Positions 7,354-39,726 are shown, counted from the first letter of the stretch. The stretch is 45,039 bases of DNA from Pseudonocardiaceae bacterium (GCA_036505275.1 DASXTS010000392.1:1-45039), one strand, 5' to 3'. Numbers and translations are program-made. Notes: a model not told the origin generated them from the sequence alone.

Positions 7354-9417
7354 ATGGCCGACAGCGATGGGTTCGACCTGGACCACTACCTGTCCATCCC
7401 GCGGGTTGGCGGGCTGGCGCTGTCGCCGGACGGCGGTCGGCTGGTGGCGGCGGTGGCCGAGGTCGGACCGGACGGCAAGAAGTTCGTGACCGCGCTGTGG
7501 GAGATCGATCCGAGCGGCGAGCGGCCCGCGCGGCGGCTGACCAGGTCGGCGCCGGGGGAGAGCCATGGCGACTTCCTGCCGGACGGATCGCTGCTGTTCA
7601 CCTCCAAGCGGCCGGATCCGGACCTCGCGCCGCCCAAGGACGGCACGACGGAGAAGGACCGGGAGGCGGCGCTCTGGCTGCTGCCGGCCGGCGGCGAGGC
7701 GCGGGTGGTGGCCGACCCGCCGGGCGGCGTCGGCGTGGTCGCCGTCGCGCGGAACAGCGGCACGGTGGTGTACGGGGTGAACATGCTGCCGGGGGTGGCT
7801 GACCTGGCCGCGGACAAGGCCAAGGCCAAGGAGCGCCGGGACAAGGACGTCAAGGCGCAGCTGTTCGAGCAGTACCCGATCCGCAACTGGGACCACTATG
7901 TCGGCCCGCGGCAGATCCACCTGTGGGCGGCGGCGCCGCCGACGAGTGACGACGAGCGGCTCACCGACCAGCGCGATCTGACACCGGCGCCGGGCTGGGC
8001 GCTGGAGGACGCCGCCGTCGCGGTCACCCCCGACGGCGGCACCGCGGTGATGACCTCGCGGGCCGACGTGGCGGACCTGCTCGACCTGCGCGTCTCGCTG
8101 GTGGCAATAGAGACGGCGAGCGGCGCCCGGAGGGTGCTGGCCGACGACCCGGAGCACGAGTACGTACAGCCGGCGTGCTCGCCGGACGGGCGCTGGGTGG
8201 CGTGCGTGCGCGGCTACCGCGGCGGCTACCACGAGCCGAACGACCAGACGCTGTGGCTGATCGACCTGACCACCGGCGAGGGCCATGACCTGACACCTGA
8301 TTTGGACCTGTGGCCGCACTCGCCGGTGTGGTCGCAGGCCGGCGACGCGGTCTTCTTCTGTGCAGACATGGCCGGGCACGCCCCGGTGTTCCGGGTGGAC
8401 GTCGAGCCGGACGGCGGCGCCGGCAAGGTGACCAGGCTGACCGCCGCCGGGTCGTGGTCCTACGCGTGCCCCTCCTCGGACGGCACGGTGCTCTTCGCGC
8501 TGCGCGACGACTTCCTCAGCCCACCGCGGCCGTACCGGCTGGACGGACGGGCCGCCGACCAGGACGGCACCCCGTTGCCAGGCCCTGGCCTGCCGCTACG
8601 GGTGGCGCCGCCCGGCCGGGTCGAGTCGATCATCGCTACCGCCCGGGACGGCACCCAGATCCAATCCTGGCTGATGCTGCCGCCAGGAGCGTCCGCGGAC
8701 AACCCGACGCCGCTCGTCGTGTTCATCCACGGTGGCCCGTTGGCGTCCTGGCACGGCTGGCAGTGGCGCTGGAACCCGCAGTTGCTGGCCGCCAGAGGCT
8801 ATGCCGTGCTGATGCCCAACCCGGCGCTGTCCACCGGGTTCGGGCGGGACTTCGTCCGCCGTGGGCGCGGCCGGTGGGGATTCGAGCCGTACGCCGAGCT
8901 GATGGCCGCGGTCGACGCCGCGGTGGCCCGGCCGGACATCGACGCCGAGCGCACGGCGGCCATGGGCGGTTCGTTCGGCGGCTATATGGCCAACTGGGTC
9001 GCCGGGCACACCGACCGGTTCAAGTGCATCATCACGCACGCCGGCCTGTGGTCGCTGGACCAGTTCCACGGCAGCACCGACGTCGGGGTGTGGTGGGAGC
9101 GTGAGTTCGGCGACTTCTACGACGAGGACCGGCGCGAGCGGTACGTGGAGAACTCGCCGAACCGGCACATCGGCAAGATCACTACGCCGATGCTGGTGAT
9201 CCACGGCGAGCTGGACCACCGGGTGCCGATCAGCGAGGGCCTGCGGCTGTGGACCGATCTGCGCCGGCACGGCGTCGAGTCGAAGTTCCTCTACTTCCCC
9301 GACGAGAACCACTGGATCCTCAAGCCGAACAACATCGTGCTGTGGTACGGCACGGTGTTCGCCTGGCTGGACCACCACCTGCTCGGTGAGCCGTGGCACC
9401 GGCCGGAACTGGTGTGA
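7354..9417 (+). CDS. S9 family serine peptidase (prolyl oligopeptidase/acylaminoacyl-peptidase type)
   Basis: An N-terminal beta-propeller-like region is followed by a C-terminal hydrolase domain with GGSFGGYM and HGELDHRVP. The ATG directly follows the M20 stop codon. Confidence 0.85.
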   Translation: MADSDGFDLDHYLSIPRVGGLALSPDGGRLVAAVAEVGPDGKKFVTALWEIDPSGERPARRLTRSAPGESHGDFLPDGSLLFTSKRPDPDLAPPKDGTTEKDREAALWLLPAGGEARVVADPPGGVGVVAVARNSGTVVYGVNMLPGVADLAADKAKAKERRDKDVKAQLFEQYPIRNWDHYVGPRQIHLWAAAPPTSDDERLTDQRDLTPAPGWALEDAAVAVTPDGGTAVMTSRADVADLLDLRVSLVAIETASGARRVLADDPEHEYVQPACSPDGRWVACVRGYRGGYHEPNDQTLWLIDLTTGEGHDLTPDLDLWPHSPVWSQAGDAVFFCADMAGHAPVFRVDVEPDGGAGKVTRLTAAGSWSYACPSSDGTVLFALRDDFLSPPRPYRLDGRAADQDGTPLPGPGLPLRVAPPGRVESIIATARDGTQIQSWLMLPPGASADNPTPLVVFIHGGPLASWHGWQWRWNPQLLAARGYAVLMPNPALSTGFGRDFVRRGRGRWGFEPYAELMAAVDAAVARPDIDAERTAAMGGSFGGYMANWVAGHTDRFKCIITHAGLWSLDQFHGSTDVGVWWEREFGDFYDEDRRERYVENSPNRHIGKITTPMLVIHGELDHRVPISEGLRLWTDLRRHGVESKFLYFPDENHWILKPNNIVLWYGTVFAWLDHHLLGEPWHRPELV

Positions 9418-15890: not shown

Positions 15891-16688
15891 ATGCTGCCAA
15901 CCGACCCGGCAGCCGTGGAGCTGCTCACCGAGGGCCGGATCGAGGTTGCCGGCCGCCTGGTGGATGCCTCGAACGCCACGCTCTACGGCACGGTGACGCA
16001 CGATGGCCTGTGCGCGGAGTGCGTGTACAAGCCGATCCGCGGCGAGCGGCCGCTGTGGGACTTCCCGGACGGCACGTTGGCCGGCCGCGAGCTGGCCAGC
16101 TACCTCATCTGCCGGGCCCTCGGCTGGTCGCTGGTGCCGCCGACGGTGCTTCGTCCGGGTCCATTCGGACCGGGCATGGTGCAGCTCTGGGTGGACGCCA
16201 CCCCGGAGCACGACCTGGTCGACGTCGTGTCTACGGACCGGGTGCCGGACGGCTGGCGGAAGGTGCTGCGGGCCCGCGATCGCTACGGCGATCCGGCGAT
16301 GCTGGTGCACGCCGACCACCCGGATCTCAAGCGGATGGCGGCGCTGGACGTGGTGATCAACAATGCCGACCGCAAGGGCGGGCACGTGCTGCGCGGCCCG
16401 GACGGCCAGGTGTACGGCGTGGATCACGGCATTTGCCTGCACCACGAGGACAAGCTGCGCACCGTCCTGTGGGGTTGGCACGGCGATTCACTGCCGGACG
16501 ACGTGGTGGATGCCCTGCGCGGGCTACGAGCGGCCCTGACCGGTGGCCCGCTGGCCGAGGAGCTGGCCCGGCATCTCACCCGCAAGGAGCGCAGCGCGCT
16601 GGCCGATCGCACGAACCGGCTGCTCACCGACACGCGCTTTCCCGGTCCCTCCGGTGACTGGCCGGCCATCCCGTGGCCGGCGTTCTGA
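15891..16688 (+). CDS. SCO1664 family protein (PI3/PI4-kinase-like fold)
   Basis: Catalytic-loop-like NNADRKGGH and DHG motifs. The gene lies immediately downstream of DUF3090. Confidence 0.8.
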   Translation: MLPTDPAAVELLTEGRIEVAGRLVDASNATLYGTVTHDGLCAECVYKPIRGERPLWDFPDGTLAGRELASYLICRALGWSLVPPTVLRPGPFGPGMVQLWVDATPEHDLVDVVSTDRVPDGWRKVLRARDRYGDPAMLVHADHPDLKRMAALDVVINNADRKGGHVLRGPDGQVYGVDHGICLHHEDKLRTVLWGWHGDSLPDDVVDALRGLRAALTGGPLAEELARHLTRKERSALADRTNRLLTDTRFPGPSGDWPAIPWPAF

Positions 16689-16696
16689 GCCCGAAC

Positions 16697-16729
16697 GAGC
16701 CCCGACTGAGCCCCGACTGAGCCCCGACG
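16697..16729 (+). repeat. 3 x 11 bp tandem repeat GAGCCCCGACT, with a degenerate fourth unit at 16687-16696, just after the stop codon
   Basis: Read directly: tgagcccgaac gagccccgact gagccccgact gagccccgacg. Confidence 0.85.
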
Positions 16730-22216: not shown

Positions 22217-22743
22217 ATGTTCCCGGCGGTGCTGCTGATCGGCTGCCTGGTGGTCGGCGCGGTCGGTGGCCCGTACGAGGGACGCCTCGACGAGGTGCAG
22301 CGCAACGACAACGCGGCGTGGCCTCCGGCCAGCGCCGAGAGCACCCAGGTCGCCGAGATCCAGAAGCGGTTCACCGACACGGAGATGCTGCCCGCGATCG
22401 CGGTGTACGAACGCCCCGGCGGGGTCACGCTCGCCGATACCGCCGCGGTGGCCACCCGGGCCAGGGCAGTGGCCGCCATCCTCGTGGTGGTCTTCGTCGT
22501 GCTCGCGCTGCTGCTGCGCGCCCTGGTCGCCCCGGTGCTGCTGATCGCCACGGTGGTGCTGTCCTTCGCGGCCACCATCGGCGTTTCGGCGCTGGTGTTC
22601 AACCACGTGTTCGACATCCCGCGTGCCGCCTTCCTGGTCGGCTTCGGGTGCTCCTCGACGCCCTCGTGGTGCGCTCGCTGCTGGTACCGGCGCTCACCGT
22701 GGACGTCGGCCCCCGCGTCTGGTGGCCCGCCCGGGTGGATTAG
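22217..22743 (+). pseudogene. collapsed MMPL/RND-type transporter remnant
   Basis: MMPL N-terminal periplasmic-loop sequence (VQRNDNAAWPPASAESTQVAEIQKRF...AVYERPGG) runs directly into late TM-helix sequence. After a frameshift it ends with the MMPL C-terminal motif [27 protein letters not shown]. The remnant totals about 175 codons, far shorter than my recollection of intact MMPL transporters (several hundred to ~1000 aa). Confidence 0.6.
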
Positions 22744-22788
22744 TCGTGAGTGGCAAATGGCGTTCTGGCACCATTTGCCACTCACGAC
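22743..22788. repeat. 46-bp inverted-repeat element, copy 1 (perfect 18-bp arms GTCGTGAGTGGCAAATGG, 10-nt centre)
   Basis: Read directly. The right arm ends 7 nt before the mshC -10 hexamer. Confidence 0.9.
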
Positions 22789-22795
22789 CCAGCCG

Positions 22796-22801
22796 TAGGC
22801 T
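22796..22801 (+). promoter_or_regulatory. -10 hexamer TAGGCT for leaderless mshC
   Basis: ccgTAGGCT-gagcctc-ATG, giving a 7-nt spacer to ATG 22809. Confidence 0.5.
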
Positions 22802-22808
22802 GAGCCTC

Positions 22809-24047
22809 ATGCGCTCATGGCCGACGGCGCCGGTACCGCGCCTGCCGGGCATGCCGCGGCCGCTGCGGCTGTACGACACCGCGACCGCGGCGCTGCGGCC
22901 GACCGCGCCGGGTCACACGGCCGGGATGTACGTCTGTGGCATCACGCCGTACGACGCCACTCATCTTGGGCACGCGGCCACCTACCTGGCGTTCGACCTG
23001 GTGCACCGGGTGTGGCTGGACAACGGGCACGACGTGCATTACGTGCAGAACGTCACCGACATCGATGACCCGCTGCTGGAGCGGGCCGAGCGCGACGGCG
23101 AGGACTGGATCGTGCTCGGCATGCGGGAGACGGCGCTGTTCCGCGAGGACATGGCGGCGCTGCGGGTGCTGGCGCCGCGGGACTACATCGGCGCGGTCGA
23201 GGCCATGCCGGAGATCATCGAGATGATCACCAAGCTGATCGCCTGCGGCGCGGCCTACCGGGTCGAAGACCCGACGTACCCGGACGTGTACCACGACCAC
23301 CGCGCGACCGCCGAGTTCGGCTACGTGTCGCGCTGCGACGAGGCCACCATGCGGCGGCTGTTCGCCGAGCGCGGTGGCGACCCCGACCGGCCGGGTAAGC
23401 GGCATCCGCTGGACGCGCTGCTCTGGCGGGTGGCCCGCGCCGGGGAGCCGTGTTGGGAGAGCGACCTGCGCGCCGGCCGGCCGGGCTGGCACGTGGAGTG
23501 CGCCGCGATCGCGATCAACCGCCTCGGCACCGGGTTCGACGTCCAGGGCGGCGGCAGCGACCTGGCCTTTCCGCACCACGAGTTCAGCGCGGCGCACGCC
23601 GAGGCGCTCACCAGCGACCACCCCTTCGCGCGCCACTACTGCCACGCCGGCATGATCGCCCTGAGCGGCGAGAAGATGTCCAAGTCGCGCGGCAACCTGG
23701 TCTTCGTCTCACGGCTGCGTGGCGAGGGCGTCGACCCCATGGCCATCCGCCTCGCCCTGCTGTCCGGCCACTGGCGCACCGACCGCTCGTGGACGCCCGA
23801 CCTGCTCGGTGCGGCCCACGACCGCCTGGCCCGCTGGCGCGAGGCCGTGTCACTGGACGCCGGCCCGGACGCCGCACCCCTGGTTTCCCGCCTGCGCGAC
23901 CACCTCGGCGACGACCTCGACACTCCCCGCGCGCTGGCCGCGGTGGACGCCTGGGCCGCCCACGCCCTCACTCGCCACGGCCGCGACGCCGCCGCCCCCG
24001 CTCTGGCCCGCACCGCCATCGACGCCCTCCTCGGCATCGCCCTCTAA
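22809..24047 (+). CDS. mshC: L-cysteine:1D-myo-inositol 2-amino-2-deoxy-alpha-D-glucopyranoside ligase
   Basis: CysRS-like class I core with [16 protein letters not shown] (HIGH motif) and KMSKSRGN, but no anticodon-binding extension. At 412 aa the length is typical of MshC. Confidence 0.9.
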
Positions 24048-24053
24048 CCCGGC

Positions 24054-24440
24054 GTGTCCGCGCGCCCCTACACGCGTGTCCGCGCGCCCGACCACGTGTG
24101 TCCGCGTGCCCGTACCGGCGTGTCCGCGTGCCCAGACACGTGTGTCCGCGTGCCCAGACACTTGTGTTGGCGCGTGCGGACACAGAGCGGGCCCAGGCGG
24201 CGCGAACATGTGCCAGTCGCGCGGACACGCCCGTCCGCGGACACGCCCATCCGGATTGGCGGACACGCCCATCCGGATTGGCGGACACGCGTTCAGATGC
24301 GGGGACGTACGCGTGCCGAAGCGCGGACACACGTGTCTGTTCGCGCGGACACGCGGTCGCACACCCACCGAACCGGAACTCATACAACCACGAACAGGTG
24401 TGTCGGAAGTCCCAGCTCATGTGTCCGAACACGCGGACAC
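24054..24440. repeat. phased 22-bp repeat array with core GTGTCCGCG: about 6 forward units followed by about 8 or more reverse units
   Basis: Forward cores start at 24054, 24076, 24098, 24120, 24142 and 24164 (degenerate), which is exactly 22 bp apart. Reverse cores (CGCGGACAC) are at 24220, 24236, 24258, 24280, 24322, 24344 and 24432, spaced 22 bp or multiples of it. The reverse half includes a 2.3 x perfect 22-mer, GGACACGCCCATCCGGATTGGC. Confidence 0.9.
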
Positions 24441-24453
24441 GCGGGAGACCGGG

Positions 24454-25374
24454 CTAGCGGCCGGGGCGGGACGGGGGCTGGGGGCCGAAGCCGCGGCCAC
24501 CGCCGTTACCGGGGCCACGGCGGCGTAGGTAGCGCTCGAACTCGGCCGCTATGGCGTCCCCAGACGCCTCCGTGAGGTTGAGCTCCGCGTCGCCGCGCTC
24601 CTCGAGGGAGCGCACGTAGTTCGAGACGTCCTCGTCCTCCTCGGCCATCTCCGAGACGGTGCGCTCCCACTCCTCGGCCTGCTCGGGCAGCGCCCCCAAG
24701 GGGACCTCGAGGTCGAGCACCTCCTCGACCCGGTGCAGCAGCGCCAGGGTCGCCTTGGGCGAGGGCGGCTGCGACACGTAGTGCGGCACCGCCGCCCAGA
24801 ACGAGATGGCCGGCACCCCGGACTGCACACAGGCGTCCTGGAACGCGCCGACAATCCCGGTCGGCCCCTCGTACCGGGATCGTTCCAACCCGAAGCGGGC
24901 CGCGGACGCCGCGTCGTAGGAGGTGCCGGTGACCGGCACCGGCCTGGTGTGCGGCGTGTCGGCGAGCAGTGCCCCCAACGACACCACGGTGGTGATGCTG
25001 AGCCGGTCGACGAAGGACAGCAGCTCCCGGCAGAACGCCCGCCACTTCATGTTGGGCTCGATGCCGTGCACCAGCACCACGTCGAACTCCGAGCCGGGCG
25101 GCCGGCACACCGCGAGCCGGGTGGTCGGCCAGACGATCCGGCGGGTGATCCCGTCGATCATGCGCACGGTCGGCCTGGTGACCTGGAAGTCGTAGTAGTC
25201 ATCCGGGTCGAGCTCGGCCAGCGGGGTGGCGTCCCAGGTCAGGTGCAGATGTTCGATCGCGGTGCTGGCCGCGTCGCCGGCGTCGTTCCAGCCCTCGAAC
25301 GCGGTCACCATGACCGGGTCGGTCAGCGAGGGCAGCTCGGATGAGCCAGCGCGGTCCGGCGAAGCATCTGTCAC
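24454..25374 (-). CDS. PAC2 (proteasome assembly chaperone 2) family protein
   Basis: MVTAFEGWNDAGDAAS... and the acidic C-terminal tail are typical of actinobacterial Rv2125-like PAC2 proteins. Confidence 0.8.
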   Translation of the reverse strand: MTDASPDRAGSSELPSLTDPVMVTAFEGWNDAGDAASTAIEHLHLTWDATPLAELDPDDYYDFQVTRPTVRMIDGITRRIVWPTTRLAVCRPPGSEFDVVLVHGIEPNMKWRAFCRELLSFVDRLSITTVVSLGALLADTPHTRPVPVTGTSYDAASAARFGLERSRYEGPTGIVGAFQDACVQSGVPAISFWAAVPHYVSQPPSPKATLALLHRVEEVLDLEVPLGALPEQAEEWERTVSEMAEEDEDVSNYVRSLEERGDAELNLTEASGDAIAAEFERYLRRRGPGNGGGRGFGPQPPSRPGR

Positions 25375-38900: not shown

Positions 38901-39680
38901 TCAGCGGGCGCGTACCGTGAGAATCTGCGCGCTGCTACCGACCGCACCGTCCCGGTCGTGCAGGGTAGCCGTGGCCACCGCGGCTCCGGTAGGGCCGATT
39001 ACCGTGTTGGCTTCAACGCCGACCCAGTCGCCTCGGGGCATCCGGTGCAGGTGAACGGTGAGGTCGGTGTTCGGGAACAACCAGCGCGCAGGGTCGAGCC
39101 TGGCCGACATCCCGCTGGCCGAGTCGGCGACCGTCAGGAGTCGGCACAGCCCGTCGGTCGGCTCGCCGGCCACCAGCTCGAACCGGGGGCGAGCCCACGC
39201 CGCGCCGGCCCCCGGCTCGTCCCACGAGCCGTGCAGCCAGCGCCAGTCGATCGAGCTGAGGTAGCCGCCCACCATCCAGGATGCCGGCAGCGGACGGGGT
39301 CCGCCGGCCTCCGGCGGTGGCAGTGGCTCCGGGGTGCCGCCGGCCAGCTCGCCGGTGTCCGTGCGGATCAGCCGCCAACCGGTGGCCCGGGCCGCCACGA
39401 TGCTGCCGGCGGAGAGCTCCGCGCCGATCAGCTCGATCGTGCGGCCCGGGCGCAGCACGGTCGCGGTGACCCGCACCTCGGCCCGCGGCACGGGGCCGAG
39501 GATGTCCACGGTGAGCTTGGCCAGCGCGGTGTCCTCCCGCGGCGAGCAGCGCAGCATTGCCCGAGCCAGCAGCGCGGACGGCGGACCCATGTGCTGCACG
39601 CCGTCCGCCCACGGGCCGACGGTGTGCCCGGTCGCCACGAACCGGTCATCGCCGACCGGCAGGTAGTAGGCGTCCGTCAT
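38901..39680 (-). CDS. thioesterase-superfamily (double hotdog, TesB-like) protein
   Basis: 259 aa, with an N-terminus ...GPW....QHMGPPSALLARA typical of the acyl-CoA thioesterase-like family. Confidence 0.7.
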   Translation of the reverse strand: MTDAYYLPVGDDRFVATGHTVGPWADGVQHMGPPSALLARAMLRCSPREDTALAKLTVDILGPVPRAEVRVTATVLRPGRTIELIGAELSAGSIVAARATGWRLIRTDTGELAGGTPEPLPPPEAGGPRPLPASWMVGGYLSSIDWRWLHGSWDEPGAGAAWARPRFELVAGEPTDGLCRLLTVADSASGMSARLDPARWLFPNTDLTVHLHRMPRGDWVGVEANTVIGPTGAAVATATLHDRDGAVGSSAQILTVRAR

Positions 39681-39684
39681 CTCG

Positions 39685-39726
39685 TTCGGCCCTGATTCAT
39701 TCGGCCCTGATTATTCGGCCCTGTCC
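39685..39726. repeat. 3 x 14-15 bp tandem repeat TTCGGCCCTGAT(TC/T)A spanning the nuclease stop codon
   Basis: Read directly: ttcggccctgattca ttcggccctgatta ttcggccctgtcc. Confidence 0.85.

Follow-up and report, generated by a model that had tools for sequence, protein, structure and literature searches.

What kind of DNA fills the gap between two convergent genes, and is it there to serve that particular place? The window, as we call the whole stretch analysed here, is 45,039 nucleotides of DNA from a Pseudonocardiaceae bacterium (GCA_036505275.1), in which the convergent genes mshC and PAC2 are separated by a spacer of 406 bp (24048-24453), the other convergent spacers within the window measuring 4-61 bp. 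The initial annotation had described this spacer as a strictly phased array of a 22-bp unit that reverses orientation midway, with the architecture of iterons or of a centromere-like protein-loading site, or else of a large bidirectional terminator. As a description this was essentially right, except that the right half is a mosaic, so that the spacer as a whole is no strictly phased array. The likely true start of mshC is 22809, judging from alignment to the 412-aa orthologue of the closest relative (the mechanical ORF start is 22623), and the best named matches of PAC2, in Longimycelium (86%) and Gandjariella (84%), place the window in a Pseudonocardiaceae lineage. The features are listed below; L numbers denote sequences other than the window, L103 and L104 being from the closest relative and L042 from a genome that carries the same repeat.

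22809-24047, plus strand: mshC, the cysteine ligase gene of mycothiol synthesis (TIGR03447, 681 bits).
24048-24053, no strand: CCCGGC, the outer part of the left terminal inverted repeat, directly 3' of the mshC stop; the same junction of CCCGGC with GTGTCCGCG occurs in L042 and L103, and the reverse complement occurs at right ends.
24054-24185, plus strand: forward block of six head-to-tail 22-bp units, five with an exact GTGTCCGCG and a degenerate sixth (left arm 7-9/9, right arm 5-8/9).
24186-24219, no strand: centre segment with ACATGTGCCAG, resembling the AATGTGCCAG centre of elements in a Kribbellaceae-labelled metagenome-assembled genome (MAG) in an alignment (A1) that is weak and only partial.
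24220-24244, minus strand: a pair of exact reverse cores, CGCGGACAC, whose positions differ by 16 bp.
24237-24290, minus strand: a 22-bp unit, GCGGACACGCCCATCCGGATTG, in 2.5 perfect copies, with CCATCCGGATTGG as the palindrome inside each (Tandem Repeats Finder, 100% matches).
24287-24330, minus strand: two degenerate 22-bp units (Tandem Repeats Finder, period 22, 80% matches; repeat family D8).
24322-24354, minus strand: canonical reverse unit pair CGCGGACAC-ACGTGTCTGTTCG-CGCGGACAC (inverted repeat I3; 91% complementary to 24118-24150).
24355-24404, no strand: unit-free unique segment of lower G+C (58%), with no match elsewhere.
24405-24445, minus strand: right terminal module, closed by a near-perfect palindromic unit GTGTCCGAACACGCGGACAC and GCGGG, the end lying 8 bp before the PAC2 stop; blastn pairs 24399-24445 with positions 98-144 of the L042 element (77% over 47 bp).
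24454-25374, minus strand: PAC2-family gene, convergent with mshC (PF09754, 231 bits).

Ten of the 12 exact GTGTCCGCG cores in the window lie in this spacer. The entire 45 kb would be expected to contain about 2.6 (2.64), and among 100 shuffles none had as many as 12. The exact forward cores at 24054, 24076, 24098, 24120 and 24142 share a single phase, and Tandem Repeats Finder reports the forward array (24054-24167) at period 22, with 5.2 copies and 81% matches. A sixth unit, at 24164, keeps the spacing and reads GTGTTGGCG, a 7/9 match to the core; the six forward units first described are thus exactly 22 bp apart throughout, with five exact cores and one degenerate. Exact reverse cores, CGCGGACAC, stand at 24220, 24236, 24322, 24344 and 24432, and the remaining two of the seven originally listed, at 24258 and 24280, are GGCGGACAC, with one mismatch each. 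Successive spacings of 16, 22, 22, 42, 22 and 88 bp put these reverse cores in three registers (20, 14 and 12 modulo 22), and the strict 22-bp phasing claimed for the right half has to be given up. A 19/22 match claimed between the reverse unit at 24344 and a forward unit is correct, whereas the GTGTC...GACAC pair attributed to every unit exists only in units 4-6, units 1-3 reading TACAC, CCAC and TACCG. The perfect 2.5 copies at 24237-24290 look like a recent tandem duplication, and the surrounding 24230-24295 has a local fold with z = -5.3. The whole is enclosed by terminal inverted repeats, CCCGGCGTGTCCGCG on the left and CGCGGACACGCGGG on the right, and the same ends recur in L042 and L071.

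The spacer is non-coding repeat DNA and the ORFs called across it are spurious, because the stop codons of mshC and PAC2 are each orthologous to the relatives' stops, the array is missing in relatives, and its translation has no homologue in the protein database, in a search aimed at arrays called as ORFs elsewhere. The initial annotation had come to the same conclusion by a faulty route, namely that 22 is not a multiple of 3 and no repeat protein could result; three units make 22 codons. The spacer region holds no site of sigma-70-like promoter consensus, and a search of both strands over 23800-24700 for a G+C-rich stem followed by a U-tract likewise returned none. Nothing in Rfam matches at gathering score, the best permissive hit (E-value 0.76) being to a eukaryotic miRNA model.

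In its canonical form the repeat unit, GTGTCCG-N6-CGGACAC-GT, is an imperfect palindrome 22 bp long, whose stem has 7 bp and whose loop has 6 nt; it is best preserved at 24421-24440 in the window and in units of L042 and L101. Across 22 units from five loci, 80.5% of the cells of this internal stem pair in register (14-57% when the partner is slid) and there are zero compensatory changes. In forward units 1-5 the core carries 0/45 mismatches and the other 13 positions 14/65 (Fisher p = 7e-4), and the 9-mer is retained at every locus of the repeat family described below. Since no change in the stem is compensated, it is the sequence and not the structure that appears to be conserved, and an invariant 9-mer without covariation points to sequence-specific recognition by a protein, whether a transposase or a host factor.

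The two arms of the palindrome have not fared alike. Units of the left block keep the left arm while the right arm has decayed, to the extent given in the list, and units of the right block keep the right arm (8-9/9) with a left arm decayed to 2-7/9. This asymmetry leaves the left-block cores able to pair with the right-block cores, and makes the whole 400 bp a long imperfect fold-back. Folding in both orientations, which the initial annotation had proposed as a check, predicts such a fold-back, strong relative to shuffles (plus strand z = -6.2, minus strand z = -9.2). Folded singly, units show no advantage over shuffled G+C-rich sequence (z = -0.3 to -1.3).

Conservation of the array in the orthologous spacer of relatives, on which a specific function had been made to depend, was not found. 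In five relatives whose PAC2 is 84-92% identical, the spacer measures 0-67 bp or is without units. In L109 (Gandjariella) and in L117 and L119 (both metagenomic) mshC and PAC2 are convergent across 65, 0 and 67 bp, with zero units, and the 150 bp downstream of PAC2 in a 92% relative (L122) contain none. The two genes are not adjacent in Labedaea rhizosphaerae (L120) or Saccharopolyspora erythraea (L121), and a unit is found at neither gene end. The closest relative (L103/L104; PAC2 94%, about 85% nucleotide identity) has exactly one unit immediately 3' of the mshC stop, TAACCACCCCACCCGGC-GTGTCCGCG-GTTCGGAACAC, which is orthologous to the first unit of the window, the synteny alignment passing through the core to 24062. 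Because orthologous sites hold either no units or one, the large array is, as far as these comparisons reach, specific to the lineage of the window; no second copy was found in the 45-kb window or in about 290 kb of relatives' sequence. The closest relative also has an ECF sigma factor gene and a downstream 264-aa gene, putatively its anti-sigma, between PAC2 and mshC (10925-12546 in L103, 7270-8891 in L104). We considered whether the array might be a remnant of this pair, and rejected the idea, as the window shows no nucleotide or protein similarity to it.

The same repeat is found at other, unrelated places. A genome-collection scan for GTGTCCGCG-N13-GTGTCCGCG returned 99 loci, most of which are unrelated tandem repeats of 11 or 22 bp, picked up because the 9-mer is part of the pattern; the only members of the family are L042, L071 and, in part, L065. 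Both L042 and L071 belong to MAG DASXRB (GCA_036506875.1, labelled Kribbellaceae), where they lie on two contigs, the L071 element filling the convergent spacer of whiB1 and pdtaS and the L042 element that of two acyl-CoA dehydrogenase-like ORFs, identified from their translated C-terminus only. Each is laid out as forward units, a centre with AATGTGCC and reverse units, with ends CCGGCGTGTCC... and ...GGACACGCCGG. A metagenome scan with a family-specific pattern gave two contigs that represent a single further locus, with forward units between the co-directional genes degV and comEA. Elements elsewhere match the window only inside the spacer (blastn, E down to 1e-14, 77-91% identity), and their units again form 22-bp tandem arrays. 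The family as seen here amounts to four loci in about three organisms, all intergenic and three of them between convergent stops. No neighbouring gene is common to all of these loci, nor do they share a par, rep or DNA-binding gene. The initial annotation had reasoned that a unit scattered without phase over hundreds of intergenic regions would speak for a generic repeat; the unit does recur at unrelated intergenic loci, at four rather than hundreds, and in phase.

A blastn comparison of the spacer with plasmids and phages matched nothing, though repeats may have been masked by the low-complexity filter, and pattern scans of viral contigs yielded only chance or unrelated matches. An autonomous partner with the same ends was found neither among the fetched loci nor in the viral-contig, plasmid and phage scans. 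A literature search on the core strings, and on actinobacterial REPs or MITEs, turned up nothing relevant.

The taxonomic label of the MAG deserves a caution. The WhiB1 of DASXRB (L071, L123-L126) falls in one cluster, at an identity of at least 90%, with proteins from Crossiella, Streptoalloteichus and Pseudonocardiaceae; since it groups with Pseudonocardiales, the Kribbellaceae label is doubtful and any spread of the repeat across orders is uncertain. L065, from Qaidamihabitans albus (Pseudonocardiaceae), has at 7414-7511 an intergenic hairpin with a perfect 16-bp stem, GTGTCCGCGTTCTGTG-CG-CACAGAACGCGGACAC, flanked by forward and reverse cores, which may be a distant member of the family.

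Variation in the number of units can be seen at the sister element between whiB1 and pdtaS. Four contigs from different samples encode an identical WhiB1 and pdtaS genes 99.8-99.9% identical, and their elements differ by exactly one 22-bp reverse unit (3 vs 4) and a 1-bp indel: a whole-unit copy-number difference between close strains. Units are stacked head to tail and are gained or lost whole between strains. Ten related loci with a slightly different WhiB1 have an empty 18-bp whiB1/pdtaS spacer and no units in 170 kb. Orthologous sites are therefore polymorphic for presence and absence in two places, at mshC/PAC2 (L109, L117, L119) and at whiB1/pdtaS (the ten loci). The whiB1 gene has a hairpin of its own, with a 12-bp stem, upstream of the sister element. 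Two contig ends fall near such elements: a short-read contig from another sample with an identical PAC2 (L001 1482-1489, window 24447-24456) ends 7 bp past the PAC2 stop, before the array, and L127 breaks off upstream of the sister element, inside the hairpin of whiB1 and about 30 bp short of the element. These could be assembly breaks caused by the repeat, or could reflect variation in the population. No record was found with an exact match to the window's MshC protein.

Taken together, we think it probable, with some reserve, that the spacer is a cluster of new actinobacterial interspersed palindromic repeats, similar to REP/BIME, fold-back-MITE or VNTR sequences, which has been amplified locally and at most incidentally blocks transcription. 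The recurrence of the repeat at unrelated sites and the variation of its copy number between strains argue that this is not a dedicated protein-loading site. We envisage that one unit stood behind the mshC stop in the common ancestor with the closest relative, and that the array would have grown from it by slipped-strand or unequal-recombination duplication, possibly with further insertions. The family may have spread as a non-autonomous element or by recombination, presumably using a sequence-specific protein that reads the invariant 9-mer, and may persist between convergent stops because insertions there would be harmless. As both transcripts would carry strong predicted hairpins, an incidental effect is plausible, and likely the only one on the cell: hindrance of read-through, or protection of the 3' ends. 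Several findings count against a repeat family: it comprises only four loci in about three organisms, with no second copy in the window or in the relatives' sequence; a target-site duplication is definable at none of the junctions; neither a transposase nor a RAYT occurs among the window ORFs checked (mshC, PAC2, metH, the VWA-type ORF, an AAA ATPase and an MMPL fragment); and an array of protein-binding sites would also account for the invariant core and the exact 22-bp phase.

That last point is the strength of a reading in which the spacer is an iteron-like, centromere-like or nucleoid-organising array, where a putative dimeric protein would bind GTGTCCGCG half-sites 22 bp apart on one face of the helix and polymerise from the two opposed blocks. 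The core is free of mismatches where the rest of the unit is not, it is identical across all family loci, the forward block is in exact 22-bp phase, and the absence of compensatory changes indicates that sequence was conserved over structure. Nevertheless, we consider such a function unlikely. The array is missing from the relatives' orthologous spacer and the unit turns up at unrelated loci that have no neighbouring gene in common; its own neighbours are mshC, PAC2 and metH, with no par, rep or DNA-binding gene adjacent; the right half runs in three registers; near-identical strains differ in unit number; and there are no matches among plasmids or phages. What survives of the iteron or centromere-like interpretation in the initial annotation is the sharp 9-mer core and the exact forward period, not a site specific to this locus. 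A bidirectional terminator or insulator, evolved in place by repeated duplication of the mshC terminator hairpin so that a long stem stops both transcripts and protects their 3' ends, strikes us as similarly improbable, despite a position squarely between the stops (0 bp past mshC, 8 bp before PAC2), strong predicted folding in both orientations and the single hairpin unit right behind the mshC stop of the closest relative. It also counts in favour that many actinobacterial terminators lack U-tracts. Against it, no stem followed by a U-tract was found, and unrelated loci share the same sequence, beyond the same shape, which argues for shared origin and not local evolution. Moreover, single units fold no better than shuffled sequence, a separate hairpin already stands behind whiB1, upstream of the element, relatives manage with spacers of 0-67 bp, and one member of the family lies between co-directional genes. 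Of the terminator originally offered as an alternative, the fold-back in both orientations stands and a terminating effect is plausible as a side effect; the lack of a U-tract and the hairpin that whiB1 has of its own count against a dedicated terminator.

That the pattern is due to chance or to assembly, as a low-complexity G+C-rich stretch or a mis-assembled repeat, seems to us highly improbable. Short-read contigs with an identical PAC2 do end 7 bp past its stop, and the copy number in the window rests on one assembly; yet none of the 100 shuffles reached the observed number of cores, and independent assemblies from other samples show the same unit architecture. A more specific proposal is a fold-back, MITE-like mobile element of Actinomycetota, whose arms are tandem 22-bp sites (core GTGTCCGCG) for a putative transposase or host DNA-binding protein, and which has moved between distant lineages (Pseudonocardiales and the Kribbellaceae-labelled MAG); we regard this as possible but rather doubtful. 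A transposon end of the Tn7/Mu/IS21 type, with TG...CA termini and stacked 22-bp sites, was also considered and set aside, there being no target-site duplication and no linked transposase. Known regulator motifs (WhiA GACAC, MtrA, GlnR, PafBC RecA-NDp, the DnaA box TTGTCCACA) appear to fit neither the 9-mer nor its context.

If the spacer is a cluster of interspersed repeats, the obvious comparison is with the REP and BIME sequences of Enterobacteriaceae, Pseudomonas and Stenotrophomonas, which are imperfect palindromes of 20-40 bp, extragenic and mostly at gene 3' ends, and which form mosaic arrays foldable as large hairpins, are patchily distributed over species and, it has been proposed, influence termination and mRNA stability as a side effect (PMC3733652, PMC2817692). 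REPs are marked by a conserved unpaired tag, GTAG or CGTC, at one stem end, and head-to-tail units are rare among them (PMC3733652). The 22-bp imperfect palindrome of the window, with its stem pairing of 80.5% in register, is of this kind, and its four loci are likewise intergenic, mostly at gene 3' ends, clustered and patchily distributed. It departs from REPs in its unit junctions, ACGT/GTGTCC or CGGC/GTGTCC without a GTAG or CGTC tag, and from BIMEs in having six head-to-tail units followed by a block of opposite polarity instead of alternating REPs. REPs also number tens to thousands per genome and go with a cognate RAYT (Y1 transposase) gene that they flank; the sequence covered here, the 45-kb window and fragments of relatives, shows a single array in the window, two further loci in MAG DASXRB and no RAYT among the ORFs checked. 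The text of a 2013 survey of tagged REPs makes no mention of Actinobacteria, Streptomyces, Saccharopolyspora or Kribbella.

Resemblances of another kind, in overall build, are found with terminal modules, variable internal tandem sub-units and strong predicted secondary structure, all of which the spacer has in common with BOX elements. BOX, from the Firmicute Streptococcus pneumoniae, is a modular non-coding interspersed element with terminal modules and a 45-bp sub-unit, present in more than 100 copies per genome; its sequence is unrelated, and its host, sub-unit length (45 vs 22 bp) and abundance all differ from what is seen here. The MIRU sequences of Mycobacterium tuberculosis are 46-101 bp long and non-palindromic, and lie within operons in gene orientation, often overlapping stop and start codons. 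With MIRU-VNTRs the family shares being an actinobacterial intergenic tandem repeat at several loci, with whole units gained and lost between strains; MIRUs differ in being longer, non-palindromic and without opposed blocks. Fold-back elements, described mainly in eukaryotes, have arms of tandem sub-repeats around a unique centre. The spacer resembles them, and MITEs, in being small and non-coding, in its terminal inverted repeats, its presence/absence polymorphism and its tandem sub-repeat arms; it differs in having no known autonomous partner and no flanking direct repeat in the window, L042 or L071, the flanking similarity being inverted and therefore part of the terminal repeat instead of a target-site duplication. 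Plasmid centromeres such as parC of R1 and parC of pSK41 lie beside parMR or parAB and are conserved with those genes. They have short repeats phased with the helical repeat, sometimes in two blocks, which the forward block of the window recalls by its exact 22-bp period and the right half, in three registers, does not; moreover, the array of the window is in the chromosomal core, without par genes, and is not conserved in relatives.

For annotation, the ORFs across the spacer should be dropped, and no label of origin, centromere or regulatory RNA applied. Should the family prove abundant, it would be an actinobacterial counterpart of REP/BIME and BOX; and were the mobile-element reading true, this would be the first REP/BIME-type system with sequence-specific recognition described in the phylum. 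The repeat may serve as a VNTR marker for uncultured Pseudonocardiaceae, and it would account for breaks in short-read assemblies at such spacers. The invariant 9-mer hints at a protein that could be recovered by a simple pull-down.

Other repeats in the window also lie at gene ends. Four 11-bp copies of CTGAGCCCCGA at 16685-16728, each with a TGA, begin from the stop codon of the gene at 15891-16688 and occupy a large part of a convergent spacer of 61 bp; this genome has here a further tandem duplication at a gene end. [quoted passage not shown] At 39685-39723, 2.7 copies of the 15-bp TTCGGCCCTGATTCA, richer in A+T than their surroundings, sit in a 30-bp gap just upstream of the minus-strand gene at 38901-39680, whose start codon is at 39680; a regulatory role is conceivable. 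Between the VWA-type gene and mshC there is a 193-aa ORF (22217-22798) with an internal MMPL match only (profile positions 102-205 of 333, E = 3e-9); the closest relative has a 347-aa gene at this position, and the ORF is perhaps a piece of a gene, perhaps a spurious frame.

Three groups of unrelated loci contain similar repeats. Four Solirubrobacterales MAGs (L035 7192-7232, L052 709-760, L053 2201-2252, L079 5249-5289) have a conserved site in common, in which three to four direct copies of GTGTCCGCGAA at 11-bp spacing precede a single inverted one. In L035, L053 and L079 there is also a conserved ORF (about 390 aa) at a distance of about 1 kb, whereas none was seen near L052; the ORF of L053 matches the tyrosine recombinase family Phage_integrase (E = 1e-19). 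These sites, which apart from the 9-mer are unrelated to the family of the window, could be arm-type sites of an integrase or excisionase sites. A conserved cluster of four to five copies of GTGTCCG(C/G), irregularly spaced at 10-22 bp, occurs in Oxalobacteraceae/Burkholderia (L009, L045, L061 4985-5037, L084, L090 529-581, L091). Lastly, a viral contig (L115 9022-9052) carries GTGTCCGCGAA three times at intervals of 11 bp, downstream of a Prim-Pol/D5_N primase-helicase gene and about 200 bp from it; this could be a replication origin with iterons.
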